Positions 5,049 through 20,351 of a stretch of DNA of 51,853 nucleotides are shown here, one piece after another; position 1 is the first letter of the stretch, and the number at the start of each line of letters is the position of its first letter. The position numbers were made by a program, and so were the translations under genes. This stretch comes from a bacterium HR08 (GTDB lineage: Bacteria > Acidobacteriota > Blastocatellia > HR10). Below the pieces are notes generated by a model. The model was not told the origin of the DNA and did not search any database. It was given only the letters and a program-made list of their open reading frames with translations. The stretch lies in NCBI GenBank assembly GCA_002898775.1, contig BEHK01000001.1:1-51853 (forward strand), read 5' to 3'.

Positions 5049-5080
5049 TTGACCTTGCAGTTGGCTGCAAGGTTTAGAAT
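5049..5080 (+). promoter_or_regulatory. MerR/CueR-type promoter-operator
   Basis: In TTGACC-ttgcagttggctgcaaggtt-TAGAAT the spacer is 20 nt. It carries a perfect dyad ACCTTGCAG-N4-CTGCAAGGT that overlaps the -35 element. Confidence 0.7.
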
Positions 5081-5813: not shown

Positions 5814-6101
5814 ATGGTTCGCCGGTGGGGGCCAATCTACAGTGGGGTGGCGGTGCTGGCATCGCTCCCCTGGTGCTGACTGGCGCCGACGGTGTTCGCC
5901 CTGCTCGGGACAGCAGGGACCGTCGCCGCGCACATGATCTTCGTCCGCGGGAATGCGATCTTCGAGGGCCTCACCGTGTACGCTCTGCTGCGCGCGCATT
6001 ATCTGGTGAACGTGAGGGGGCAGGGAGGGCGAACGGCTCGCTTCACGGTGTGGGCGGGGACACTCGTCTCGGCCTTGCTTTGGAGCTTTCGCCTCTTTTG
6101 A
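5814..6101 (+). CDS. MerT/MerF-like small membrane protein with an in-frame TGA (5877-5879) at the second Cys of the TM1 Cys-Cys pair; candidate selenoprotein (C-U)
   Basis: The read-through VLASLPWC-U-LAPTVFALLGTAGTV aligns with ASLCCTGPLVAALLGLGS of the MerT-like proteins at 8310 and 10791. ORF 5892-6101 is in frame with ATG 5814. The product has about three hydrophobic helices. The SD is weak. Confidence 0.55.
5899..5918 (+). promoter_or_regulatory. Candidate SECIS-like hairpin downstream of TGA 5877-5879
   Basis: CCCUGC-ucgggaca-GCAGGG has a 6-7 bp stem. The loop begins 26 nt after the UGA. Confidence 0.35.
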
Positions 6102-7169: not shown

Positions 7170-7733
7170 ATGAGAAAGCAAGGCATGTGGCTTCTGTTTG
7201 TATTTTGCCTTCTTACCGCCGTGCCGGTGTCGGCCCAGGTCGAGAAGGCGAGGGTCAAAATTGACGGCATGATCTGAGGTCTCTGAGCGCGAGGGGCTCA
7301 GAGAGCCCTCCAACGCCTGGATGGCGTTGATCGTGTCGAGGTGAATTTGGTGAAAGGGGAAGCCGAAGTATTTTCCAAGCCCGAGAAGTCTTTCGATCCT
7401 GTCCTGATCCCTAAGGCTCTTCGGGAGGCCGGCTTCACGGCGACCGAGGTCGTGGTGACGGCTGAGGGAACTCTGATCAAGGGGGAGGAAGCCTTCACAC
7501 TGGATGTTCCGGGACTGGCGCACCCGTTTGTGCTGGCCGGCGGAGCACAGGCCGACACGCTCAGAAAACGGACAGACCTCGTGGGGAAGAAAATCCGCGT
7601 GACCGGGAAGCTTCATCCCAGCCATGCGGATCATCCGCCCGGCCTTACGGTCGAGAGCTTTGAGCAGTTGCGCGAGGATGGTCTCGGCCTCGGCGGGAAA
7701 ATGGTGTTGCGCCTGGTGGGGCGGAGAATGTGA
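7170..7733 (+). CDS. Secreted HMA (MerP/CopZ-fold) domain protein whose GMxCxxC metal site is encoded as GM-I-TGA-G-L-TGA; candidate U-x-x-U selenoprotein
   Basis: The signal peptide ends VSA/Q. Then comes VKIDGMI-U-GL-U-ARGAQRALQRLDGVDRVEVNLVKGEAEVF...ALREAGF, a canonical HMA fold. The TGAs are at 7275-7277 and 7284-7286, and everything is in frame with ORF 7341-7733. A GGAGG SD lies 8 nt upstream. Confidence 0.7.
7280..7310 (+). promoter_or_regulatory. Two overlapping, mutually exclusive hairpins at and after the paired TGAs (candidate SECIS)
   Basis: Stem A is UCUCUGAGC-gcgaggg-GCUCAGAGA (9 bp, and it includes the second UGA). Stem B is GAGGG(G)CUC-aga-GAGCCCUC (8 bp with a bulge). Confidence 0.4.
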
Positions 7734-7778: not shown

Positions 7779-7810
7779 TTGACTCTGGAGGCGAGTCCAG
7801 GGTTTATACT
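7779..7810 (+). promoter_or_regulatory. MerR-type promoter-operator
   Basis: In TTGACT-ctggaggcgagtccagggtt-TATACT the spacer is 20 nt. The dyad CyCTGGA-N6-TCCAGrG is imperfect. Confidence 0.65.
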
Positions 7811-7817
7811 TCCGATT

Positions 7818-8285
7818 GTGAAAACGAGCGGAGCAGAAGCGACGCTGTTGAAGATCGGGCAGGTGGCCGCCGAATGCGGCGTGAGCGTGGATACGCTCCG
7901 CTACTACGAGCGGTTGGGGCTTGTGCCCAAACCGGTGCGCACGGCGAGCGGGTATCGGCTCTACGATCGGCGCATCCTGGAGCGCTTGAGCTTCATCAAG
8001 CGGGCGCAGAGCTTCGGCTTCACGCTCGAGGAGATCAAACAGTTGCTCCAATTGCCGACGGCAGAACCGCGGACGTGCGCGGAAGTTCTTCAGGTGATCG
8101 AGCACAAGCTCGACGACCTCGATCGGCGATACGAAGAGATCAAGCGGCTGCGGCGGGAGCTGGCGGCCTACAAGGCCGAGTGCGAGCGGGCTCTCGCCGG
8201 GCGGAAGAGTTGTCCGGTCATCGAAGATTTTCTTCACCCTTCCTCTCGCGCGGCAAAGCCCCGGCGGGGGCGGAAGCGAGAGTGA
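7818..8285 (+). CDS. merR: MerR (mercury-type) transcriptional regulator
   Basis: The HTH reads KIGQVAAECGVSVDTLRYYERLGL. Three Cys residues are placed as in Hg-MerR (EPRTCAEV, AECERA, KSCPVIEDF; compare SCPLI in Tn21 MerR). The start is uncertain: GTG 7818, which would be nearly leaderless, or TTG 7848. Confidence 0.8.
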   Translation: MKTSGAEATLLKIGQVAAECGVSVDTLRYYERLGLVPKPVRTASGYRLYDRRILERLSFIKRAQSFGFTLEEIKQLLQLPTAEPRTCAEVLQVIEHKLDDLDRRYEEIKRLRRELAAYKAECERALAGRKSCPVIEDFLHPSSRAAKPRRGRKRE

Positions 8286-8309
8286 ACGGATGTCGTGGAA
8301 GGAGGGACG

Positions 8310-9116
8310 ATGAGAGAGAAGATCACACTGGGGGCATCACTCATTGGGGCGATCGCGGCGTCGCTCTGCTGCACGGGGCCGCTTGTGGCTGCGCTCCTTG
8401 GCCTGGGCAGTTTCGGCGCGGCGGCGGCCTTCGAGGCCTGGCGACCATATTTGCTCGGCGTCACGGCAGTGCTGCTTCTCGCAGCGTTTTATTTCACCTA
8501 CCGCCGGCCAAAGGTCGCTTGCGCCGAGGGCGCGTGCGCGACGTCCGAGGCTTCGCGGTGGAGCAAGCTCGCGCTGTGGATCGCTGCGGGCGCCGTCATA
8601 GCACTTGCGGCCTTTCCGTATTATTCGGGGCGGCTGTGGGCGGCGCTCGGTCGCCACGCGGGCGGGCCATCGGCGTCACACGCGCAGGCGGCGACCGGCC
8701 GAATCATCACGGCGCGAATGGCCGTCACGGGGATGACCTGCGGCGGGTGCGCAACTGCGCTGGAAGCAGCGCTCAGAGAGATCTCCGGAGTGCAATTGGC
8801 GGCGGCGAGCTACGAGAAAGGCGAAGCCACCGTCGAGTACGATCCGGCGCGGGTCAAGTTAGAAAAGCTTGTGGAAACGGTCAAGGAGACCGGATTCACG
8901 GTCGAAGCTGTGACGGCGACCATCCCTGTCGAAGGGATGACCTGTGCCGGGTGCGCGGTGTCGGTCCGGCAGGCGCTCCTGCAGCGCGATGGGGTGAAGG
9001 CTGTGGAAGTCAGTGTCGAGAAGAAGCACGCCGTCGTGACGTTCGATCCGGCCCGCCTCACCCTCGAGCAAGTGGCCGACGCGATCAACAAAACGGGTTT
9101 CAAGGCCCTCCTGTGA
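8310..9116 (+). CDS. merT: MerT-like mercuric transporter fused to two HMA (MerP-like) domains
   Basis: TM1 reads ASLCCTGP, the loop carries CAEGAC, and there are two GMTCxxC domains (GMTCGGCA and GMTCAGCA). Confidence 0.8.
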   Translation: MREKITLGASLIGAIAASLCCTGPLVAALLGLGSFGAAAAFEAWRPYLLGVTAVLLLAAFYFTYRRPKVACAEGACATSEASRWSKLALWIAAGAVIALAAFPYYSGRLWAALGRHAGGPSASHAQAATGRIITARMAVTGMTCGGCATALEAALREISGVQLAAASYEKGEATVEYDPARVKLEKLVETVKETGFTVEAVTATIPVEGMTCAGCAVSVRQALLQRDGVKAVEVSVEKKHAVVTFDPARLTLEQVADAINKTGFKALL

Positions 9117-9176
9117 GGAGCGCGATCATGGGGATGGCTTATGCCTATCCGAGCCGTTGCTCGAACGTGAGCGACG

Positions 9177-9214
9177 CGGGTACCTCAAGCGATCTCGAGA
9201 TCGCTTGGAGTCCC
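9177..9214. repeat. Palindromic repeat family, copy b
   Basis: The sequence is gggtaCCTCAAGCGATCTCGAGATCGCTTGGAGtcccc. Confidence 0.8.
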
Positions 9215-9262
9215 CACATGGTCTGACGTGCGAGCCCGGTTGGTCGAGGAGGTGGAAGACTC

Positions 9263-9790
9263 ATGTCCGAGTGTTGCCAGGTGCCGATCGTGGCCAATTC
9301 AGCTCACTGCCGCTTGTGCGGGCGGAAAGGACAGTCCGTCACGCGGCGGACGATGGAACACTTGCTCGTGGATTCGGCGAGGGCCCGCCTCGAGGATCAT
9401 CCCTACTTTTTCTGCGCGACGCCGACCTGTCCGGTCGTCTACTTTTCCAACGAGGCGGATTCCTACTTCTGCAAAGGTGATGTGCGCGTGCGGGTGGGAG
9501 TGAAGGAAACCGAAGATCCGGTGCCGATCTGCTATTGCTTCGGCATCACGGAGAAGATGGTGCGCGATGAGATCGCAGCGACGGGACGGACGACGATTCC
9601 CGATTACATCAAGGCGCAAATCAAATCGGGCCGATGCGCTTGTGAGATCATGAATCCTTCGGGCCGATGCTGCCTCGGCGTCGTGACCGGGATCGCGCTC
9701 AGACTAGTGAAGCGATCGGGCTCGACAAGGAAGCGGGAAGAATCTATTGCGGCCTCGATGCCCGAGTGCTGCGCGGTGACGAAGTCGTGA
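9263..9790 (+). CDS. Cys-rich CopZ-family / putative Fe-S metallochaperone-like protein
   Basis: It contains MSECCQVP, CRLCGRKG, YFFCATPTCPVVYF, a BFD-like ICYCFGIT and a C-terminal PECCAV. A GAGGAGGTG SD lies upstream. Confidence 0.6.
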   Translation: MSECCQVPIVANSAHCRLCGRKGQSVTRRTMEHLLVDSARARLEDHPYFFCATPTCPVVYFSNEADSYFCKGDVRVRVGVKETEDPVPICYCFGITEKMVRDEIAATGRTTIPDYIKAQIKSGRCACEIMNPSGRCCLGVVTGIALRLVKRSGSTRKREESIAASMPECCAVTKS

Positions 9791-9799
9791 GGTGGGGTC

Positions 9800-9928
9800 A
9801 TGAGCACAGACTGTTGCGGCGCGGTCGGGCCGAAAGATCTCGTGGCGAACCGGTGGATTTCGCCGGTTGTATGGAGACTGCTGCTTATAGGGAGTTTCGG
9901 CTTAACATCTCAACGCTCCAGCCAATAA
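9800..9928 (+). CDS. 42-aa ORF with an N-terminal DCC motif (possibly a truncated membrane-protein gene)
   Basis: The product is MSTDCCGAVGPKDLVANRWISPVVWRLLLIGSFGLTSQRSSQ. A GAGGTGG SD overlaps the preceding stop codon. Confidence 0.3.
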   Translation: MSTDCCGAVGPKDLVANRWISPVVWRLLLIGSFGLTSQRSSQ

Positions 9929-9993
9929 CCCGGCTGGTTCACCGAGAAAAGGTCAAATACGCCTGTAGGAGTGAAGGCAGAGTGATCCCCAAC

Positions 9994-10030
9994 GGGGGCC
10001 TATGTGATCTATAGATCGCATGGGGTGCCC
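9994..10030. repeat. Palindromic repeat family, copy c (left arm degenerate)
   Basis: The sequence is gggggcctatgtGATCTATAGATCgcatggggtgccc. Confidence 0.7.
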
Positions 10031-10227
10031 AAAGCTCCACGGGGTGAGAGAGCCCCCGTGCGCCTTGGAAAAGGCACCGGTCCGCCCTTCGAGCCTGGAG
10101 GGCGGAATAAGAACCGTTGTGAAGGCGAGTTATTGCGTCTCGGTGGAGCTTGATCGAGATGAACCGCTGCACTCCTGGCATGCTGTCCGAGGCGATGACA
10201 CGTCGCACCTTTGGAGCTTGAGATGCT

Positions 10228-10265
10228 GGTGCCCCACGCGATCTGAGGAATCGTGTGGAGACTCC
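10228..10265. repeat. Palindromic repeat family, copy d (right arm degenerate)
   Basis: The sequence is ggtgccccacgcgatctgaggaatcgtgtggagactcc. Confidence 0.6.
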
Positions 10266-10292
10266 GAGGGCTGGGTCTCACTCAAGAGGTCC

Positions 10293-10324
10293 TTGACTCT
10301 GGAGCTTGCTCTAGGGCTTACAAT
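10293..10324 (+). promoter_or_regulatory. MerR-type promoter-operator
   Basis: In TTGACT-ctggagcttgctctagggct-TACAAT the spacer is 20 nt and the dyad is imperfect. The first 12 nt are identical to the promoter at 7779. Confidence 0.6.
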
Positions 10325-10344
10325 CCGAACCTGGGAGGTCAGCG

Positions 10345-10794
10345 ATGACGGACAAAGCCGTGCTCAAGATCGGCGAAGTGGCTGCGCGAAGTGGCGTCGG
10401 CATTGACACCTTTCGCTACGATGAGCGGCTCGGCTTGTCGCCTCGAGCGGTGCACACCCGGAGCGGTTATCGCGTGTATGATCCGAACGCGATTGATCGA
10501 ATCGCCTTCATTAAGCGGGCCAAGAGCTTCGGTTTCGCCCTCAATGAAATCTGCGATCTCGTCCGGGCTGAGACCGCAGACCCTGAAACCTGCTTCACTG
10601 TGTTGCGGGTGATTGAACGAAAGCTTGGTGATCTGAATCGCCGACATGCAGAGATCAAACGACTGAGGCGAGAGCTGGCCGTCTACAAAGCCACCGGCGA
10701 GCGGGCCATCGCCGACGACAAGGCTCGTCCGGTCATCGAGGATTTTCTTCAGGGCTCCTATCAACGAACGGGCAACGGAGGGAACAAAACATGA
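10345..10794 (+). CDS. MerR-family regulator, paralog lacking two of the three Hg-ligand Cys residues
   Basis: The HTH reads KIGEVAARSGVGIDTFRYDERLGL. It keeps ETCFTV, but where the paralog has AECERALAGRKSCPVIEDF it reads ATGERAIADDKARPVIEDF. Confidence 0.8.
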   Translation: MTDKAVLKIGEVAARSGVGIDTFRYDERLGLSPRAVHTRSGYRVYDPNAIDRIAFIKRAKSFGFALNEICDLVRAETADPETCFTVLRVIERKLGDLNRRHAEIKRLRRELAVYKATGERAIADDKARPVIEDFLQGSYQRTGNGGNKT

Positions 10795-11669
10795 AAAGGG
10801 AGACAACGCTCGTAGCATCCGTGATCGCGGCGATCACGGCTTCGCTCTGCTGCCTGGGGCCGATTGTGGCCGCGGTCGTTGGCCTGGGCAGTTTTGGGGC
10901 GGCGGCTGTGTTCGAGACCTGGCGGCCCTATCTGCTAGGGGTGACCTTTGGGCTGCTCGGGCTGGGGTTTTACTTCACCTATCGCAAGCAGGAAGTACAC
11001 TGCGCCGATAGGAGTGTATGCGCGACGCGCCCTTCAGTAGGTCGGTGGAATAAAATCCTGCTGTGGCTGGCAACAGGTCTCGTCATCGCCTTCGCCACGT
11101 TTCCGTATTACTCCGGAGCAGTCTGGAGGTTCTTGTTGACTAAAGGGGAAACGCAAGCGATAACCGATCCGGCAGCCCCAGGCGATTCGCCGTCACGATC
11201 GAATGAATTCGCCGTGGCGGGCCAAGCCCAACAGCCATCGTCACCAGCGGAGGAACCTCAAACCAGCTCGCCCAAGCTGGCGGCCGAATCTGCACGAGAT
11301 AGAGGGGCCGTTCGGAGGTCAATCTCAGCATCGAAAACATACGGAGGGACTGTTCAGAGGGCGGGCTCAGCATCAAAACCCCTGGCGGCCAACTCGCCAT
11401 CCACCACCGCCGCAATCCGCAATCCGCAAGACGTGCCCGCCCTGACACGCGCAACGATTGAAATTCAAGGCATGCATTGTGCCGGCTGTGCGGTGAATGT
11501 TGAGCAAGCACTCAAGCGACTGCCGGGCGTTAAAGCTGTCGTAGCAAGCTATGAAAAAGGTCAGGCCGTAGTTGAGTACGATCCAGCGAAAGTCAAGCCG
11601 GAACAGCTCAAAGCCGCTATTGACGGGATCGGATACAAGGTCGGAGCGGTGCACACAGCGCAACCGTGA
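10791..11669 (+). CDS. merT: MerT-like transporter fused through a low-complexity linker to one HMA domain
   Basis: It contains ASLCCLGP, the loop CADRSVC and GMHCAGCA. Its start overlaps the regulator stop (ATGA). Confidence 0.8.
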   Translation: MKRETTLVASVIAAITASLCCLGPIVAAVVGLGSFGAAAVFETWRPYLLGVTFGLLGLGFYFTYRKQEVHCADRSVCATRPSVGRWNKILLWLATGLVIAFATFPYYSGAVWRFLLTKGETQAITDPAAPGDSPSRSNEFAVAGQAQQPSSPAEEPQTSSPKLAAESARDRGAVRRSISASKTYGGTVQRAGSASKPLAANSPSTTAAIRNPQDVPALTRATIEIQGMHCAGCAVNVEQALKRLPGVKAVVASYEKGQAVVEYDPAKVKPEQLKAAIDGIGYKVGAVHTAQP

Positions 11670-11765
11670 TTTTGAAATTCTTCCCCGGTTTATCCGAGCC
11701 AGGGAGGAAAGAGGAAGCGCAAGCTGTCGGCTTGCGCCACAGGAATACTTTCGGAGGGAGAAAAG

Positions 11766-12131
11766 ATGGCAAGAGACACAAGAATGGGAATGATCACGGT
11801 AGACTTGGCAGAGTTGAGTCCTGAGATTCATGACGCCTTGGCTCACATTCGGGAAGTCGCCTATGCCGATGGCATCTTCCCCGCGAAAGTGAAGGTGCTC
11901 ACGGCGCTCGCCATTTCCACCATCATCAAGTGCGAGCCGTGCGTGCGGATGTATGTGGAGAAAGCCATAGCCCTCGGCGTCACACGCGAAGAGATGGTCG
12001 AGATGCTCAACGTCGCGATGGCCATGGGCGGCTGCCCGGGCGAGGCTTGGGTGCATAAAGCCCTACTGCTCTATGAGAGCCAAGTGCAAAGGCGACTGGC
12101 GACGGTCTCCAGCGACGCCTGCTGCGCGTAG
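11766..12131 (+). CDS. Carboxymuconolactone decarboxylase (CMD)/AhpD-like family protein with CxxC
   Basis: It contains TIIKCEPCVRMYVEKA and has a C-terminal DACCA. A GGAGGGAG SD lies upstream. Confidence 0.7.
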   Translation: MARDTRMGMITVDLAELSPEIHDALAHIREVAYADGIFPAKVKVLTALAISTIIKCEPCVRMYVEKAIALGVTREEMVEMLNVAMAMGGCPGEAWVHKALLLYESQVQRRLATVSSDACCA

Positions 12132-12198
12132 TCGGTCGCGCGTCGGCCGGAGTCGGCCTTTGACCGATCGAAGCCTTGAGAGAAAGGAGGTGTTCGCT

Positions 12199-12675
12199 AT
12201 GAGGAGCAAGATCACTACCCTGCCTCTTGTGCTCGTCGCTTGTTGCGTTTTACTCCTTGCCGATCCCCCCGCAGTGGCGCAAAGAGCGGGCGAGCCGGTG
12301 GTCGTGAAATCAAAAAACAGTTTTGCCGATACGGTATCCAAGCTGAAGAGTGCCATTCAGCAGAACCAGATGATGGTGCTGTTCGAGGCAAATCATAAAA
12401 ACATGATGGCGATGGTCGGCGTGGAGAGCAAAAACAGCGTCACCGTTCTCTTTGGCCGTCCGCAGATGGGGGCCATGCTGATGGGCGCGGAGCCGAAAGC
12501 GGCGCTGGAGATGCCCATGCGCATCGCTGTGCGCGAGCTGGATAACGGTGAGATTGTGGTCATCTACTACAAGCCGTCATATCTGCTCTCGCATTACAAG
12601 AACGCCAAGCTCGATCCGATCGGCCGGCAGATGGACGCCATGCTGCAGAAGCTCGTAGACGCGGCGACAAAGTGA
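12199..12675 (+). CDS. DUF302-domain secreted protein
   Basis: It has a signal peptide and the segments MVLFEANHKNMMAMVG and EMPMRIAVRELDNGEIVVIYYKP. An AGGAGG SD lies upstream. Confidence 0.7.
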   Translation: MRSKITTLPLVLVACCVLLLADPPAVAQRAGEPVVVKSKNSFADTVSKLKSAIQQNQMMVLFEANHKNMMAMVGVESKNSVTVLFGRPQMGAMLMGAEPKAALEMPMRIAVRELDNGEIVVIYYKPSYLLSHYKNAKLDPIGRQMDAMLQKLVDAATK

Positions 12676-12758
12676 GAGCCGGACCAGGGGCGGTAGCACC
12701 GTCGCTGTTCCCAAGAGAGGGCTTCCCGCCTTAGCTCGATAAGGCCAGAGAGGTTGCC

Positions 12759-14162
12759 ATGCCGGCGGCCCGCACAGAGAGACTGAAGCGCCTGGCTCTC
12801 ATCGCGGGAGTCATCATTGCCGGCATGGCCAAAACCGACCTGCTGGTTGAAAGGGGAGCGATCGTCGCGGCACAGTTGAAATCGCGGGAGGTTAAACAAC
12901 CGCCTGAGATTCCTCTCGGCCCAGATGGAAAGTACGCATTAGAGACATGCACCCGCTGCCATGAGGCCTCTCGCTGGGAGATCGAAGCCAGCGTTCATGG
13001 TCCGGAGTTTCTCAGGCGCAAGGGAATCTCGGCAGAAAAGGCGCGCGAGATCACCTGCCTGACCTGCCACGATTCGCACGGGAAAAGCGAGTTCGCAGCC
13101 GCCAACTTCCCCATCACATCAGGTCGCGATGTCGCCACCTGCTCGAAATGTCATGGGCGAGAGCGCTGGGTCTTCTTCAACCACTTTCATGGGAAGTACT
13201 TTGCTCTGAAAAAGCGCAATATCCCCACCTGCACATATTGCCATGTGGGTCATGAACTGCCACGCGACAACCCGATTTCGCCCATCAACGTTGCCAACGT
13301 CGGGCGCATATGTGCCGGATGTCATGGGGGGAGCGACGAGCAAGCTAAGGTCATCATGGCCGCCAATCTCGGAACGCCTTCCACCTCGCGGGCACTGTAT
13401 CGAAAGAACCTCTTTGGCATCGGCTGGTTGGCCCTGCCCATTAAAGCTTTCTACTCCCTCCTGACGGTGGTGATCTTATTGTTTGGTTTCACGTGCTTGC
13501 GGGAACTCTACTACACCCTCAAGGGGGATTTATCGCCCTCAACTTCAGGTCTGTTCACCGGCTGGTTGGCGGTTCAGACCATCCTCCTTTTCATGTTCTA
13601 CACGCTGCTCGATAGCTCTGGAATTACGCTCCTGTACGCGTACACTCACGGTGACCTCATTTCCAACGTGATGATCCGCATCACGGAACCGCTCCGTCAA
13701 TTCTTCGGGAGTGCAGATGCCCGGAGCTTGATGCACCGGCTGGCCGGACTGGCTTTGATTCTGGGATTCACCGGGCACGTTATCTACCTGGCCATGCATC
13801 GCGACGTCTTCCGACGGTTGCGGATCCAAAGAGAAGATCTCAGGCAAGCGTTCGATGAGTTGAGACGGCGTAAGCCACCGGAGACCGACTGGAAGGTTAA
13901 GGTCGCCTACTGGCTGGTCACCTTTTTGGTAGCCGTCATGCTGCTGACGGGGGTTGGCGAGTGGGCTGCGTTCGAGTTGATGAAATACGTGTCCTACCAG
14001 GTGGTGGAGTACAACAACCTCATCCATGAGTGGAACGGTCGCACCCTCAGCCTGTTCCTCTACGGCATCGTGGTGTTCTTCTTCGGACTCCTGCGGCCTT
14101 TGGCGATCCGGCTGGGCCGCTGGGTGAGCGGGAGAGAAATGCCGACAAGGGAAAGGAGGTGA
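12759..14162 (+). CDS. Inner-membrane multihaem cytochrome: pentahaem c-type domain fused to a polytopic b-type-like membrane domain (CbcL-like architecture)
   Basis: It has five CxxCH motifs (CTRCH, CLTCH, CSKCH, CTYCH, CAGCH) followed by several hydrophobic helices that contain His residues. Confidence 0.65.
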   Translation: MPAARTERLKRLALIAGVIIAGMAKTDLLVERGAIVAAQLKSREVKQPPEIPLGPDGKYALETCTRCHEASRWEIEASVHGPEFLRRKGISAEKAREITCLTCHDSHGKSEFAAANFPITSGRDVATCSKCHGRERWVFFNHFHGKYFALKKRNIPTCTYCHVGHELPRDNPISPINVANVGRICAGCHGGSDEQAKVIMAANLGTPSTSRALYRKNLFGIGWLALPIKAFYSLLTVVILLFGFTCLRELYYTLKGDLSPSTSGLFTGWLAVQTILLFMFYTLLDSSGITLLYAYTHGDLISNVMIRITEPLRQFFGSADARSLMHRLAGLALILGFTGHVIYLAMHRDVFRRLRIQREDLRQAFDELRRRKPPETDWKVKVAYWLVTFLVAVMLLTGVGEWAAFELMKYVSYQVVEYNNLIHEWNGRTLSLFLYGIVVFFFGLLRPLAIRLGRWVSGREMPTRERR

Positions 14163-14168
14163 TCCGTT

Positions 14169-15566
14169 ATGGAGAGGAAGGTAAAGGTTGGTGCCGTTCT
14201 GGCGCTCCTCATTTTGGCCGGAGTGCTTTGGCTCGCCCTGCCCTCGGGCGGGCTCGTTCCTGAGGACGTATCGGTTTCAGCCTCCGAGTTGCCATCGGCG
14301 GAGACGTGCAAACCGTGCCACGAGGAGATCTATAATCAGTGGCGAGAGTCGTATCACGCCCGCTCGATTCACGAGCCTACCTTCCGAGCCATGCTGACCA
14401 TCTTTGCCTACAACACGCGCGGGACGAATCCCGAGGTGTGGGGCCCGAATTATGAGTTCTGTTTTAACTGCCATGCGCCGGAAGTGAAAGTCAAAAACAA
14501 TGCCGCCGAGCTGGCCCGCCAAATCCGCAACGGCGAGAAGATCACGAGCGAAGGGATCACCTGCACGGTCTGTCACTCCATCGAGTGGGTGACGGACATT
14601 CCGGATCCCAATGTGCCGGTCGCATTCGATGTGGGTCCGACACTGCCCTACCACAAAGTGAAAAAGACCGCCTTGTTCGAGCAATCGGTGCTTTGCTCGC
14701 CCTGTCACGATTACAACAATCCGTATGCGGTCGTGGCCCATCAGGTCTATAAATCCGATCCCGGGGTCACGGGCGTGCCGTGCTGTACGGTCAACCGAGA
14801 CTGGAAAAAGACTTCGTATGCCCAAAAAGGCATCACCTGCCAATCCTGCCACATGCGCGAAGAACAGCAGGTCGTCCAGTTAAGTGGGTTCGATAAGTTT
14901 AAAAACATGCTGTACGCCCTGACGGGGCTGACGCGATATCGAGATGACCGGCGGCGCGTCAGTCATACCTTCCCTGGCGGGCGCTCCGAAGAGATGCTCA
15001 AGCGCGCCGTAAAGATGGAGATCGAAGCCGAATCCGCGGGAGACGACATCAAGGCGACCGTCGCTTTGAGAAACCTCACTGGCCATAGCATCCCCAACGG
15101 CTGACCGCCGAGGACGCGCATCGTGCTCAGGTTCTGGGCACAGGACGAACACGGCAATGAACTCTTCTCCGACACGAGAGAATACGGGTTCAACTTCGTT
15201 GATCCGAAAGGCAACGAGCCGGCCATGGTGGATAGCACAAGCGGTCGAGGGTATGAGGTTGTGCTTGAACCCGAGGTGACGCGGCGCGAGTCGTTCGCTT
15301 TCCCCCGGCCTGAAGGGAGCCGGCGGCTTGAGCTGAAGGCGACTCTGACGTACATCTTCTTCGTTCCACCGCCGCCGGACGCCATGAACCGAATGCAACA
15401 GGACATCATCGCTCGGATACAAACCGCTAAGACGCCAGAGGAGAAGGATCGAATTCTGAACGAAGAGATTCCGGCGCGGATGCGGTCCATGAATATCTTG
15501 GCGACAACCTATCCGCCGGTGGTCATGGCGTCCGTGACGAAGGCCTTGGAGATCGGGAGGCGTTGA
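14169..15566 (+). CDS. Periplasmic multihaem cytochrome c (five CxxCH) interrupted by one in-frame TGA (15102-15104); either a read-through (Sec?) product or a pseudogene
   Basis: The haem motifs are CKPCH, CFNCH, CTVCH, CSPCH and CQSCH. ORFs 14169-15104 and 15123-15566 share a frame (1398 nt) and read LTGHSIPNG-TGA-PPRTRIVLRFWAQDEHG. Confidence 0.55.
15123..15141 (+). promoter_or_regulatory. Hairpin downstream of TGA 15102-15104
   Basis: GUGCUCAG-guu-CUGGGCAC has 8 bp including one G-U pair. The loop lies 27-29 nt after the UGA. Confidence 0.3.
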
Positions 15567-15671
15567 GCGGGCCCGATTCCTCTGGTCTGTGAAACACCAG
15601 AGCATCGGGATATTTCACCGCCCATTTGATTGGAGAGGCGGACGGACAATGGTGCTCAATCGGAGGTGTCT

Positions 15672-16415
15672 ATGGCCAGGGAAAGTTTCTGGTGCTTGCG
15701 TCAGGTGTGTATCCTCGATGGCTTGAGCGAGCACGAGCTACAGGAGCTCTCGCGGATCGCGCCGATGCGTCATTTCAAGGCAGGCCAGTTCATTTACCAC
15801 ATCGGCCAGCGGGCCGATATGCTCTACATTATCGGGGAAGGGGAGGTGACGATCTCGACGGTCACGCCCGAGGGGAAAGAGCTCATCCTTGGTCTGTTCA
15901 AAAACGGCGATGTCTTCGGCGAGCTGTTCGCACCCGAAGTGGCGTGCGGAAAGACGGAGGCGAAAGCGCATACCGATGTCTGGCTGTGCGCGCTCACGGA
16001 GCGGGATTTCGTCTCGATATGCAAGCGCCAGCCGGAAGTGGCCATCAACTTCATTCGCGTGCTCATGCGACGGGTGCACGAGCTGCAAGAGGAGGTCGAA
16101 GACCTGGCGTTCGCGACGGCCCGCGAGCGATTCGTGAAGCTGCTCCACAGGCTGTGCGCGGAATCTCAGCAAGAGGCCGCAAAAGCGCCGGAGTGCGTCG
16201 TTCGATATTCTCAAGAGGAACTGGCGCGCATGCTCGGCCTCACCCGCGAGCGCGTGAACGCCGTCATCGCTGAGCTGAAGGAGCGAGGCGTCCTCCGCTC
16301 GCACTACGGCTACCTCACGGTCGATCGAAGTCGCCTGCGCTCGCTTCTTCCGTCGGAAGAAGCGGCCAATTCAGCGTTCCGAACAGGCTATCCCATACGG
16401 GCGGCGGGACGGTGA
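15672..16415 (+). CDS. Crp/Fnr-family transcriptional regulator
   Basis: The cNMP-binding fold reads FKAGQFIYHIGQRADMLYIIGEGEV and the C-terminal HTH reads YSQEELARMLGLTRERVNAVIAELKERGVL. A GGAGGTG SD lies 4 nt before ATG 15672. Confidence 0.85.
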   Translation: MARESFWCLRQVCILDGLSEHELQELSRIAPMRHFKAGQFIYHIGQRADMLYIIGEGEVTISTVTPEGKELILGLFKNGDVFGELFAPEVACGKTEAKAHTDVWLCALTERDFVSICKRQPEVAINFIRVLMRRVHELQEEVEDLAFATARERFVKLLHRLCAESQQEAAKAPECVVRYSQEELARMLGLTRERVNAVIAELKERGVLRSHYGYLTVDRSRLRSLLPSEEAANSAFRTGYPIRAAGR

Positions 16416-17508: not shown

Positions 17509-18021
17509 CTTTTCCCCTCATTTGTCCTCAGAAAGCCGAGCCGAGCGCGGGCCCGATGGCGCGATGCCTATGCCGAGAGGGCGGCCGGTCACGCGTTTCG
17601 CCGGAGGAGATCGTTCGGCCAAACCGATGCCAAGGAGAAGGCGCTTTCGCGGTTCCCATGAGGAGTCAAAGCGTTCGCGAGCCAGGGGCGCGGCTTTTCG
17701 GCCGGGAAAAGGACGGGCGATCGCCCATGGGGATGAGCCGACGAGGCGTTCGCGCACCGTGGGCGTGGGCCTTCGGCCAGGAGGCCAACCCCGCGCCACC
17801 CGGACTGGTTCGATCGCCCGCTTCGGATTCAAACGGTCCTCGTTCATTCCACTTCGGAATCTTAGCCGGAAGATCGGCGATTTCTGCGAAGGATTTCACA
17901 TTCTGCTCGCACAAGCGGTTGGGGCCGTACCGGACATCTCCATGGGGCGAAAGAAGGGCTTGAGCCTGGAGCAACTCCAGGGTTTATCCTAAAGCTGCAG
18001 GACCGAAGAAGAGAAAGGGCT

Positions 18022-18753
18022 ATGAAGAAGATCAGCCTCGATCACCTTCGCCCTCCGGATCGGGCGCGACTTGACGCGCTCGTCGGGCAAGTCGAACAGG
18101 CGGTGCCGATTCTTCGAGAGCGCAGTGTGCCCTTGAGCCCACAAGAGCGGCAAGTCTGGCAGGCCGTTTTACATAGGTTCGCTCAGTTCGGGCGGGCACC
18201 GACGGTCGGGGAGTTGTCCAGCGGCCGAACTGGCCTCTCACCAGAAGTCACTCACGCATGCTTGGAGCGATTAGCTGCGAAAGATGTCATCGTGCTCGAT
18301 GAGCGGTCAGGCGAAATTCTCGGCGCGTATCCCTTCTCTGCCCGTCCGACGCGCCATCGGGTGAGCTTTGACGCTCAGACCGTCTATGCCATGTGCGCCG
18401 TGGATGCTCTCGGCATCGCCGTAATGCTTGGCCGAGAGGTTCGAATCGAGTCGCGCTGTCCACTGTGCGGCGGAGCCATCAACGTGAAGGCAGACGCTGA
18501 AGGAATAACCCACTTGGAGCCGGCGTCGGCCGTGGTTTGGTTGGGTGAACCGAGGGCACGAGCGACTTGCTGCGCCGATTGGCTTTGCCCGGAGATCAAC
18601 TTCTTCTGTTCGGATGAACATGTGAATCAGTGGCGGCTGGGGCAAGCCGAAGCGAGCGGTTATACACTCATGCCTCTTGAGGCGCTCTACCTGGCCAGTC
18701 GCTTCTTTGCCGGTTTGCTTCAGCGGCATCCTGAAGAAGGAGGGAAGATATGA
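18022..18753 (+). CDS. merB: Organomercurial lyase MerB
   Basis: YAMCAVDALGIAVMLG matches YAWCALDTLIFPALIG, RCPLCGGAINV matches HCAATGAPVSL, and TCCADW...NFFCS matches FCCHVHFFAS of R831b MerB. Confidence 0.85.
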   Translation: MKKISLDHLRPPDRARLDALVGQVEQAVPILRERSVPLSPQERQVWQAVLHRFAQFGRAPTVGELSSGRTGLSPEVTHACLERLAAKDVIVLDERSGEILGAYPFSARPTRHRVSFDAQTVYAMCAVDALGIAVMLGREVRIESRCPLCGGAINVKADAEGITHLEPASAVVWLGEPRARATCCADWLCPEINFFCSDEHVNQWRLGQAEASGYTLMPLEALYLASRFFAGLLQRHPEEGGKI

Positions 18754-19262
18754 AAAGCGTCTCCTTGGTCATGCTCGGCATCCTCTGCATGCCCGTGTGC
18801 ACTTTGGCACAAACCTCGCCGCTCCACCTCAGGGTGGTCGGCGATGTGGAAGCGAACAAGGCACTCAAGATCCTTTGACCGAGCACGGTGAGCGGCATGC
18901 TCCAACGCCAGGCTGGCGTTGAAAAAGCGACCTACTCCCGTGACGGTGTAGTCGAAATTGAAGCGAAGACCGAAGCTCCGTTTGAAGTGAAGCGAATCCT
19001 TTCGGTGCTCAAAGACGAAATGGGTTTTGATCCGATTCGGGAGATCGAGGTCACGGTCGTTGGCCAGCTCAGCTCAACTTCGGCAGGATGGATCGTGAAA
19101 CCGAAAAATAGCGTCGAGGCGTTCGCCCTGGTCGAGAATGAAGAACTCCAGGGGCTCAAGGCAAGAGAGAACATCGAACACCAAGAGATCAGGCTGACAG
19201 GGAGGCTTCAGAAGCGAGCCGATGGTACGCTCGCCCTCAAAGTCGAGGCGGTGGAGAGGTGA
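18750..19262 (+). CDS. Secreted HMA-like protein, paralog of 7170-7733, with a single in-frame TGA (18876-18878) at the second metal-ligand position; candidate selenoprotein
   Basis: After a signal peptide it reads LRVVGDVEANKALKIL-U-PSTVSGMLQRQAGVEKATY. The U lies 13 residues before the conserved GV, exactly as the second U of the paralog does. The C-terminal half resembles the paralog. The ATG overlaps the merB stop (ATATGA). Confidence 0.6.
18903..18921 (+). promoter_or_regulatory. Candidate SECIS-like hairpin downstream of TGA 18876-18878
   Basis: CAACGCC-aggcu-GGCGUUG is a perfect 7-bp stem. The loop lies 32-36 nt after the UGA. Confidence 0.4.
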
Positions 19263-19266
19263 ACAG

Positions 19267-19500
19267 ATGAATTCTTGGAAAATCATCATTCCGGCTTTCA
19301 TCGCCTTGGCCATCTGCTGTCTCGGCCCGCGGCTCATCGCGCTCATCGGAGCCGGGCTGCTCTGGTTGGCAGCGCCGCTGGGAGAGTTCGGTTGGTTGAT
19401 TGTCCCGGGAGCGATTCTCCTGCTCGCGTTGGCGTGGCGAGAACGCCGAAGCCGACGGGCATGCTGTCGCGTGAAAAGTTCGAATCCAGATGAACCGTAG
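19267..19500 (+). CDS. merF: MerF-like two-helix mercury transporter
   Basis: The 77-aa product has a CC pair in TM1 (ALAICCLGP) and a C-terminal CC (RRACCRV), as MerF does. Confidence 0.6.
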   Translation: MNSWKIIIPAFIALAICCLGPRLIALIGAGLLWLAAPLGEFGWLIVPGAILLLALAWRERRSRRACCRVKSSNPDEP

Positions 19501-19511
19501 AAGCACCAACG

Positions 19512-20351
19512 ATGTTCGAGTATCTCACCGAGTACTGGTTTGCTTTCCCGGTCGTGGCGCTGGGCTGCACGATGACGATCATGGGTGGCGTCGGGGGCAA
19601 TGTCGTCTGCGGGCCGTTTTTCATGCTGGTGCTGAAATTGTCACCGGAAGCGGCAATTGGAACGGCGTTGGTCACCGAAGTCTTCAGTATGTCGAGCGGC
19701 GTCATCGGCTACGGACGGCGCAAGCTGATAGACTACAAACTGGCATTGTTTTTAGCCCTGGGAGCTGTGCCAGCGGCCATCGTCGGCTCATTGCTTTCTG
19801 TGCATGCGCCGGGGACTTTCCTGAAGATCATCTTCGGCGGAGCCATCATGATCATTGCTTGGCTGCTGTATCGCTCGCCGAACGAGACCGTCCTTGCCGC
19901 TCAAGAGGCGATCGTGAATCCTGGAGTGCCCGGCGTGCGCACGCGCATTGATCGTCAGGGCCGCGTCTCCTCGTACCGGGTGTGTCGGCGAGGACAACTC
20001 TTGGGCATCAGCGTGCTCGCCGGATTAGGGTCGGGGCTTGTCGCCATCGGTGGCGGCGAACTGAACACGCCGGCGATGGTGCTCCGTTGCAAAATTCCGG
20101 TTCGCATTGCGGCCGCGACGGCTGTGTTCACCATGGCCCTGACCGTCATGGCAGGTGCGAGCACGCACGTCCTTGTTGGTCGGCCCGTTTGGAACCCTGC
20201 TCTCTGGACCATCCCCGGAGCCATCCTCGGTGGGCAATTGGGGAGCTATCTGGCCAGCCGCATCGAATCGGAGGCGCTGAAGCGGTGGCTTTCGCTTCTC
20301 TTCGTGCTGGTCGGTATGGTGATGATCGCGGACGCCGTATTTCTGAAGTAG
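19512..20351 (+). CDS. TauE/SafE (TSUP, DUF81) family permease
   Basis: It is polytopic and contains MGGVGGNVVCGPFFMLVL and GGGELNTPAMV. Confidence 0.75.
   Translation: MFEYLTEYWFAFPVVALGCTMTIMGGVGGNVVCGPFFMLVLKLSPEAAIGTALVTEVFSMSSGVIGYGRRKLIDYKLALFLALGAVPAAIVGSLLSVHAPGTFLKIIFGGAIMIIAWLLYRSPNETVLAAQEAIVNPGVPGVRTRIDRQGRVSSYRVCRRGQLLGISVLAGLGSGLVAIGGGELNTPAMVLRCKIPVRIAAATAVFTMALTVMAGASTHVLVGRPVWNPALWTIPGAILGGQLGSYLASRIESEALKRWLSLLFVLVGMVMIADAVFLK

Follow-up and report, generated by a model that had tools for sequence, protein, structure and literature searches.

The question raised by this locus is what a bacterium makes of a reading frame that begins on the stop codon of an organomercurial lyase gene and carries a TGA codon within it. 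The frame lies in positions 18022–19500 of a 51,853-nt stretch of DNA from bacterium HR08 (contig BEHK01000001.1, forward strand; the whole stretch is referred to as the window), where three closely packed genes occupy the plus strand. Comparison of the middle gene with its relatives suggests that the TGA codon at 18876–18878 very probably encodes selenocysteine (Sec; U in sequences), because TGA is conserved in 16/16 homologous genes, purifying selection acts on both sides of it, and a downstream hairpin shows compensatory changes together with a dip in synonymous differences. We consider it highly likely that the product is an HMA-derived selenoprotein. The features of the locus are as follows (aa, amino acids; AF2, AlphaFold2; SECIS, selenocysteine insertion sequence):

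18022–18753, plus strand: merB-like organomercurial lyase gene (243 aa; Pfam MerB, E = 1.1e-36)
18750–19262, plus strand: selenoprotein gene (170 codons and a stop; signal peptide, remodelled HMA domain, and predicted OB-fold domain)
18750–18812, plus strand: predicted signal peptide of the secretory (Sec) pathway, MKSVSLVMLGILCMPVCTLAQ, recognized by eye from a basic n-region, a hydrophobic core, and a family-conserved AQ(A)Q-T
18819–19058, plus strand: HMA-derived (MerP-like) domain with the loop G-D-V-E-A-N-K-A-L-K-I-L-U, from the AF2 model of a fragment and from profile matches
18876–18878, plus strand: in-frame TGA codon, very probably translated as selenocysteine, where HMA proteins have the second Cys of CxxC
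18903–18921, plus strand: SECIS-like hairpin CAACGCC-AGGCU-GGCGUUG, with a 7-bp stem that begins 27 nt past the U of the UGA
19047–19259, plus strand: predicted C-terminal OB-fold-like domain, common to the paralog encoded at 7170 (beta-beta-beta-alpha-beta-beta in AF2)
19267–19500, plus strand: gene for a MerT/MerF-type two-helix membrane protein (77 aa; AICCLGP in helix 1 and a C-terminal RACCRV)

The frame that opens at 18750, with GGAGG 6 nt upstream of its ATG, reaches the TGA at 18876–18878 and goes on in frame to the TGA at 19260–19262; the translation around the recoded codon is ...NKALKIL-U-PSTVSGMLQRQAGV... When the joined product, with U written as C, was searched against 5.8 billion protein clusters, 16 clusters matched, each of them a 121–131-aa piece beginning just past the position of the TGA. 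The DNA of these matches and of more distant relatives was retrieved, and each gene was extended upstream. TGA was found at the same column in 16/16 distinct homologous genes (14 of a core family and two of remote subfamilies, L024 and L025; L numbers denote the loci of relatives, which together we call the single-Sec family), and never TAA, TAG, or TGY. In frame before the TGA, the genes encode a signal-peptide-like N-terminus and the conserved stretch P-L-R-L-K-V-V-G-D-V-x-A-N-K-A-L-x-x-L. Purifying selection acts on both sides of the codon in one shared frame, with dN/dS ratios of 0.22 over the 21 mature codons that precede the TGA and 0.13 over the 58 that follow. At the column of the Sec, more distant, full-length relatives have the second Cys of a CxxC motif (GLSCPFC in P0026 and GLACPFC in P0030), and no Cys form inside the single-Sec family was returned by the search of 5.8 billion clusters or by a profile search of 1.84 billion representatives.

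The hairpin that follows the codon spans +27 to +45, and its offset is the same in the remote subfamilies L024 and L025; the same hairpin stands at the same offset after the second UGA of the 7170-type paralogs, the UxxU/CxxU relatives named after the gene at 7170 in the window. Across 20 sequences, 97% of the hairpin pair cells held standard pairs, against 23–55% in slid controls. Compensatory double changes were observed at two of the pairs (A-U to G-C and G-C to C-G), and the loop had the form A/U-G-G-C/A-U/A, in which the GG was invariant. The fraction of synonymous differences, counted on codons for identical amino acids, was 0.10 over the residues MLQRQAGVEK versus 0.35–0.5 elsewhere in the gene. 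No Rfam family matched the whole window at the gathering threshold, and nothing meaningful was found around the hairpin at E values up to 10. A SECIS element is a stem-loop shortly after the UGA with a G in its apical loop, and the hairpin has this form, at a spacing that would lie within the accepted range. The hairpin and the synonymous dip appear to fit a SECIS element.

Other recoded genes occur on the same contigs as members of the single-Sec family, namely, the UxxU gene at 7170 and a C-U MerT-like gene at 5877 in the window, and a DUF3179 gene in L004. The last of these (L004 26–1081, minus strand) is split by an in-frame TGA (VLVY-U-PVCGTG) and belongs to a known UxxC selenoprotein family; Sec is therefore used in an organism that has a member of the single-Sec family. 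An alternative genetic code, in which TGA would be read as Trp or Gly, was ruled out because TGA is the ordinary stop codon of both merB and the selenoprotein gene itself. An assembly artefact was likewise ruled out, as the same gene order is found in the independent assemblies L014 and L015.

The origin of the protein can be traced through its relatives. BLASTP aligned it with the protein encoded at 7170, which has the metal loop GMI-U-GL-U (28% identity over 131 aa, E = 2e-8); its only U falls on the second U of that protein, and the alignment extends through the C-terminal module. An hhalign comparison of the single-Sec family with CxxC/UxxU HMA-OB proteins agreed (99.4%, E = 9.6e-22, 161 columns), with Sec placed on the second Cys. 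The column of the first ligand is occupied by Lys in the window protein and by K/N/A/T/R/G across the family, and the metal loop, in which this ligand is replaced, contains a conserved 6-residue insertion (x-A-N-K-A-L). The GMxCxxC motif is not found in G-D-V-E-A-N-K-A-L-K-I-L-U, where only its second position is kept, as Sec. The HMA homology of the target comes via profiles only: the HMA-OB relatives themselves match Pfam HMA (PF00403). The HMMER family-profile search of the 1.84 billion representatives returned just 19 relatives, including the full-length Cys forms P0026 and P0030, which have the same C-terminal module. Against the PDB, the family profile matched HMA domains in the same register (ATP7B HMA domains, 3e-4; TTHA1718, 0.016; MerP, 0.42). 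Weak matches of the target or the family to RdgC and YajQ were treated as chance.

Structure prediction is consistent with these alignments. The AF2 model of the fragment that follows the Sec (pLDDT 88, pTM 0.78) has the order alpha1-beta2-beta3-alpha2-beta4, that is, the rest of an HMA domain, and the Cys-form relative P0026 was modelled as a complete HMA domain followed by the same OB-like domain (pLDDT 85); the top structural match of the P0026 N-domain was MerP (1osd; TM 0.83, 33% identity). In the model of the target, the last HMA strand continues into a strand-strand-strand-helix-strand-strand domain. The top Foldseek matches of the fragment model in the PDB were nearly all OB folds, with modest E values of 4e-3 to 3e-2 (SSB, ExoVII, the N-domains of Lys- and Asp-tRNA synthetases, RPA, and the C-domain of NlpE), and on this basis we predict an OB fold for the C-terminal module. 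The predicted mature protein, of approximately 150 aa and 16 kDa, contains no Cys; the Sec would be residue 43 of the precursor. Neither His nor Met is conserved in the single-Sec family, its OB domain has no conserved Cys, His, or Met, and the His-rich loop found in the OB domain of the paralogs (HPSHADHP in the 7170 protein) is missing. For these reasons the Sec would be the sole soft ligand of the protein. Given this lack of conserved ligand residues, a role of the OB domain in docking or oligomerization appears more likely. That the signal peptide is of the lipoprotein type was ruled out, as the Cys in its hydrophobic region is not conserved.

A preliminary description of this DNA, made from its letters alone, had proposed that the TGA is a recoded Sec codon, and the column kept in 16/16 genes together with the conserved hairpin bears this out. 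It had made its account depend on translation of the half downstream of the TGA and on the surrounding region being an HMA metal loop; the frame kept in the 16 genes, with a dN/dS of 0.13 after the TGA, and the profile matches to HMA domains in the same register agree with both. Its picture of a secreted HMA-like protein that retains one recoded ligand (KIL-U) on the second U of the 7170 protein, with Lys at the first ligand position, also holds: BLASTP and hhalign give this same register, the HMA derivation rests on hhalign and not on a direct Pfam match (which is not significant), and secretion is predicted from the signal-peptide-like N-terminus judged by eye. The C-terminal module was correctly described as common to both paralogs, the BLASTP alignment running through it, but its fold, which had been called unknown, is now predicted by AF2 and Foldseek to be an OB fold.

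We propose the following mechanism. merB, the selenoprotein gene, and the MerF-type gene would be transcribed together from a MerR-type promoter. Translation of the selenoprotein would start at the ATG that overlaps the merB stop, and the UGA at 18876 would be read as Sec with the aid of the hairpin at 18903–18921. The product, to judge from its N-terminus, would be exported. In it, the MerP-like GMxCxxC loop appears to have been rebuilt to G-D-x-x-A-N-K-A-L-x-x-L-U-P, leaving one selenolate as the only soft ligand. This selenolate may capture Hg(II) or an organomercurial cation in the periplasm, the identity of the metal being suggested by the gene context, and may hand it over, through ligand exchange, to the Cys pair of the small membrane transporter encoded by the neighbouring gene, for delivery to the cytoplasmic MerB and MerA. 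We lean modestly towards this view of the protein as a periplasmic single-selenolate carrier of Hg(II) or organomercurials; that it binds Hg or methylmercury and feeds MerF, MerB, and MerA, as the preliminary description had suggested, is something we infer.

Several points weigh against one part or another of this interpretation. With respect to the codon, none of selA, selB, selC, and selD is among the open reading frames (ORFs) of the window, which contains no tRNA either, and the copy of the gene in HR10 is frameshifted. The single-sequence folding energy past the UGA is unremarkable (z = -1.2 to -2.0, and -1.2 for the hairpin region), so that the evidence for the hairpin is its conservation, its covariation, and the synonymous dip. 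With respect to the fold, PF00403 matched the target in the correct register with an E value of 0.17 (12.8 bits versus a cut-off of 24.8), the target matched no NCBIfam model, including MerP (TIGR02052) and NF041115, and its AF2 model consists of the post-Sec fragment, so that the beta1 strand and the Sec loop lie outside it. With respect to function, one ligand cannot form the linear two-coordinate Hg(II) site of MerP; a dimer, a partner protein, or a small molecule would have to supply the second ligand, and each of these is a candidate only. Linkage to merB was found in 2/16 lineages when merB was looked for in flanks of 5–8 kb, as far as the contigs, some of them much shorter, extend, and the 450-aa flavoproteins in the operons of relatives have neither the C-terminal Cys pair of MerA nor its N-terminal HMA domain.

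These points bear on the alternatives to different degrees. If the TGA were a true stop, the locus would encode a 42-aa secreted peptide and a 121–124-aa cytoplasmic protein starting at GTG 18888 or ATG 18897, or else be a pseudogene. Gene callers have split the gene in just this way in every database entry, a GTG or ATG occurs 12 nt past the TGA in the core family, and the HR10 frameshift would suit a decaying gene. It is nevertheless extremely unlikely: the codon is always TGA with the frame kept in 16 homologous genes, the internal starts have no Shine-Dalgarno sequence of the kind seen before 18750 (GGAGG), purifying selection (dN/dS = 0.22) acts on the 21 mature residues that precede the TGA, and these align with the beta1 strand and loop of HMA relatives so that the two halves form one domain, relatives carry Cys at the TGA column, and the hairpin with its synonymous dip fits a SECIS element. 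Given a selenoprotein, it could be a periplasmic redox nucleophile and not a metal carrier, for example by selenenylsulfide exchange that keeps the periplasm-facing Cys pairs of MerT/MerF-type proteins reduced, or by detoxification of oxidants. Most bacterial selenoproteins are redox enzymes, according to passages of PMC9312934 and PMC13188914; thioredoxin-like genes occur in the operons of relatives (a DF-family gene in L004, and DsbD_TM/Redoxin genes), and a single chalcogen without a resolving Cys could act only together with another molecule, for which the adjacent Cys-pair membrane proteins are candidates. We regard a redox role as quite improbable all the same, because the predicted fold is that of HMA (MerP-like) and not thioredoxin-like, the Sec occupies precisely the place of a metal ligand, classical CxxC/UxxU metal sites are found in the closest relatives, and the operon is under a MerR-type metal-sensor operator.

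The choice of metal is more delicate. The same carrier could serve another soft metal, such as Cu(I), Ag(I), Au(I), or Cd(II), with merB recruited late and in one lineage; this would accord with the scarce merB linkage and with the relatives' flavoproteins that lack the MerA Cys pair, as well as with the zf_CopZ-type (CopZ_Nterm_CC, 2.9e-42) and MerT-HMA fusion proteins (Pfam MerT and HMA) among the conserved neighbours and with the equally good scores of the HMA-OB relatives for the NCBIfam models of CopZ and MerP. This reading is rather unlikely, given that the window contains canonical merA along with merB, that its MerR paralogs have three Cys in a spacing typical of Hg-type sensors, and that MerP tops the structural matches of the Cys-form relative. 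Within the mercury-carrier interpretation, a single ligand suits the organomercurial cation RHg+, and the lone selenolate could be a dedicated periplasmic receptor for RHg+ that delivers it via the MerF-type protein to MerB; we hold this narrower proposal to be doubtful, with only a small chance of being correct. More speculatively still, the selenolate itself could help to labilize the Hg-C bond. Were the receptor proposal true, the protein would be the first organomercurial binder to be identified in the periplasmic part of a mer system, and one with obligate Sec.

Among known systems, the protein resembles MerP (TIGR02052; PDB 1osd and 1afi) in its predicted secretion, in a predicted HMA fold with a ligand at the start of helix 1, and in its place in a MerR-controlled operon beside MerT/MerF-type Cys-pair transporters, but it differs in having one Sec for CxxC, a 6-residue loop insertion (ANKAL..), and an extra OB domain. 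With the NF041115 and 7170 families it shares full-length homology, the predicted arrangement of signal peptide, HMA, and OB domain, Sec at the second ligand, and the same hairpin at 27 nt. In contrast to these families, of which the 7170 family has U or C at the first ligand, the single-Sec family has lost that ligand, its loop has the insertion, and its OB domain is without the His-rich loop; it is also rare (16 clusters at 90% identity versus at least 124). MerT-family CU selenoproteins and the HMA domains of UxxC P-type ATPases likewise have Sec in place of a metal-ligand Cys in heavy-metal proteins, and a CU gene lies in the window (5877); however, these are membrane transporters or cytoplasmic domains in which Sec has a Cys neighbour, whereas here Sec stands alone. 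CusF and others are small periplasmic OB-fold metallochaperones in metal trafficking. The target, too, is predicted to have a small periplasmic OB-fold domain in a metal-trafficking system, but this domain has no conserved Met, His, or Cys, making a metal site unlikely, and CusF is not among the Foldseek matches listed. Passages of PMC9312934 (2022), PMC13188914 (2026), and 10.1101/2022.07.06.499078 list NF041115 UxxU metal-binding proteins, MerT-family proteins with CU or C/SxxU, and UxxC P-type ATPases, and these passages contain no description of a single-Sec HMA protein.

The single-Sec family comprises 16 clusters at 90% identity and a few remote representatives, and occurs in four species-level genomes of GTDB r232, the carriers including one labelled Acidobacteriota and two unclassified bacteria, among them "bacterium HR10". 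Metagenome-assembled genomes with a member of the family include GCA_002923315.1, GCA_053489175.1, JBEPZV01, JBFMAU01, and CAZTMT01. It is a rare offshoot of the 7170-type UxxU/CxxU family and apparently a small, undescribed selenoprotein family of mercury-resistance-type operons, within the MerP/HMA metallochaperones. In predicted Sec metal binders such as the UxxU HMA proteins and the CU MerT proteins, Sec still has a partner ligand and versions with Cys are known; in the single-Sec family, a MerP-like two-Cys site has been cut down to one Sec in a rebuilt loop. That no Cys member turned up in either of two very large protein collections points to selenium as a necessity for the chemistry of this family, not an optional upgrade. 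In public records every family entry is a truncated piece named "hypothetical protein", so that recognition of the family enlarges the prokaryotic selenoproteome and reveals a gap in annotation. merB, the selenoprotein gene, and the MerF-type importer gene under a MerR operator also form a compact three-gene cassette for studying the capture of Hg(II) and organomercurials outside the cytoplasm.

The surroundings of the cassette include the following features:

17960–17990, plus strand: MerR-type promoter/operator (TTGAGC as -35, a 19-nt spacer with the dyad CTGGAG-caa-CTCCAG, and TATCCT as -10)
19512–20351, plus strand: gene for a TauE/SafE-family membrane protein (Pfam TauE, 8e-41), 11 nt downstream of the merF-like gene and in the same order in L015
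23479–25200, plus strand: canonical merA, read from its translation (N-terminal HMA with GMTCDGC, redox CVNIGC, and C-terminal CC)
7170–7733, plus strand: secreted UxxU HMA-OB selenoprotein paralog (TGAs at 7275 and 7284; Pfam HMA, 1.6e-11)
9811–9954, plus strand: remnant of an ancestral gene pair after a deletion of approximately 1 kb, from blastn against L007

The promoter/operator ends 31 nt upstream of merB. TTGAGC-N19-TATCCT with a dyad is the layout of promoters controlled by the MerR family; no ordinary promoter with a 16–18-nt spacer was found in this region. The pattern CTGGAG-N(2-6)-TCCAGGGTTTAT occurs twice in the window, with 0 expected: here and at 7785–7807, before the merR gene at 7779. 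It also occurs upstream of merR genes in L007, L010, L011, and L023. The merB product had MerB2 (5c17) as its top PDB match (E = 1e-16), and in this alignment its MCAVDAL and TCC motifs fall on the catalytic Cys/Asp/Cys positions. It scored approximately 86 bits against the NCBIfam MerB models, below their equivalog cut-offs of 193–200, and is therefore a divergent member of MerB. TauE- and DedA-family genes follow the merF-like gene, the TauE/SafE gene probably belonging to the same transcription unit, and merA lies approximately 4 kb downstream of the selenoprotein locus.

The merF-like gene starts at 19267, 4 nt past the selenoprotein stop, and its 77-aa product has the layout of MerF, a protein of approximately 80 aa with two helices, one CC in helix 1, and another at the C-terminus. 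BLASTP aligned it with the N-terminus (the first two helices) of the MerT-HMA protein of the window (8295–9116) at 39% identity over 57 aa (E = 1e-6), and the gene is kept beside the selenoprotein gene in L014 and L015. The product had no Pfam match even at E = 10, and in NCBIfam it matched only MerT (0.0096) and no MerF model; tblastn against plasmids gave no match, and BLASTP gave no alignment with a MerF-like 70-aa ORF of L018. The CC...CC gene directly downstream in the preliminary description is thus confirmed by its position, its AICCLGP and RACCRV motifs, and its similarity to MerT-HMA.

The order merB, selenoprotein gene, merF-like gene, and TauE gene also occurs in L014 (99% identical) and L015 (88% identical). 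In L015, merB and the selenoprotein gene are separated by approximately 70 nt, and the ATGA overlap is therefore lineage-specific (window and L014). Of the translational coupling to merB proposed in the preliminary description, the overlap itself stands, at 18748–18753 as described (ATATGA), but it is confined to the lineage of the window; merB co-occurrence as a trait of the family does not stand, given linkage in 2/16 lineages. In the other lineages, the operon contains merR, merT-HMA, in some cases a flavoprotein gene, zf_CopZ, a gene for a 126–131-aa Cys-rich membrane protein, and the selenoprotein gene, with CMD, DUF302, multihaem cytochrome, and Crp genes downstream. The Cys-rich protein (MAECCAPDPKDLV..., ...CGRMHCYFTGP...), predicted to be a membrane protein, is encoded directly upstream of the selenoprotein gene in most lineages (L001 5450–5830, L004 5450–5830, L007 5316–5711, and L026 2962–3357) and matches no Pfam or NCBIfam family. 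In L018, a different MerF-like 70-aa ORF (NCBIfam trans_MerF, 3e-7) immediately precedes the selenoprotein gene. What recurs across the loci is a neighbouring gene for a small Cys-pair membrane protein, and not merB.

The 450-aa pyridine-nucleotide disulfide oxidoreductases of these operons (L007 3390–4742, L026 1021–2373, and L024 2015–3361) carry a CxxxxC pair. Their designation as MerA was rejected because the C-terminal Cys pair is missing, and for the same reason the Hg specificity of the ancestral operon is not established. A constant operon member is the Cys-rich protein encoded in the window at 9263–9790, which matches NCBIfam CopZ_Nterm_CC (2.9e-42; described there as a "putative iron-sulfur cluster-binding metallochaperone") and Pfam zf_CopZ. 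In L004, a small thioredoxin-like gene at 5080–5457 matches the NCBIfam "DF family (seleno)protein" (5e-32).

An operon of the ancestral type is present in the window at 7779–16415, and the remnant at 9811–9954 lies in it. There, approximately 25 codons from the start of the gene for the Cys-rich membrane protein (MSTDCCGAVGPKDLV...) run directly into approximately 13 codons from the end of a second selenoprotein gene copy (EFRLNISTLQP*); by blastn, window 9216–9885 corresponds to L007 4732–5401 and window 9888–9954 to L007 6356–6422, and in relatives the intact gene pair sits at the position of this deletion scar. Because the second copy was deleted, the merB-linked selenoprotein gene is the only intact copy in the window. 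The HR10 copy (L007 5864–6396; also in L008, L009, and L013) lacks 1 nt shortly before the Sec codon (GAGGCGAA-AAGGCG). This deletion is present in three assemblies from one sample series, the close relative L010 being intact, and reflects either a pseudogene or a shared error. In L010, a decayed merF-like remnant with a stop and a frameshift (13950–14237) immediately precedes a TauE gene that shares 90% identity with the one in the window; neither merB nor a selenoprotein copy is found at this site.

The 7170-type UxxU/CxxU family contains at least 124 clusters, mostly truncated at the UGA in databases, and its loci examined here are window 7170–7733, L005 2703–3194, L018 2188–2681, L013 576–1136, and L010 738–1292. 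All of them have TGA for the second ligand; for the first, the window, L005, and L018 also have TGA (GMI-U-GL-U), and the HR10 lineage has Cys (GLFCPL-U). In these paralogs the UxxU is followed by two hairpins, the first of which includes the second UGA. The 7170 protein matched the NCBIfam model UxxU_metal_bind (NF041115) at 4e-13 and 49 bits, below the cut-off of 95. A further recoded gene in the window is the MerT/MerF-like membrane ORF at 5835–6101, with an in-frame TGA at 5877 (SLPWC-U-LAPTVF). Its C-U dipeptide is that of a small known group of MerT-family selenoproteins, and a long hairpin with a CGGGAC loop lies approximately 30 nt downstream of the TGA.

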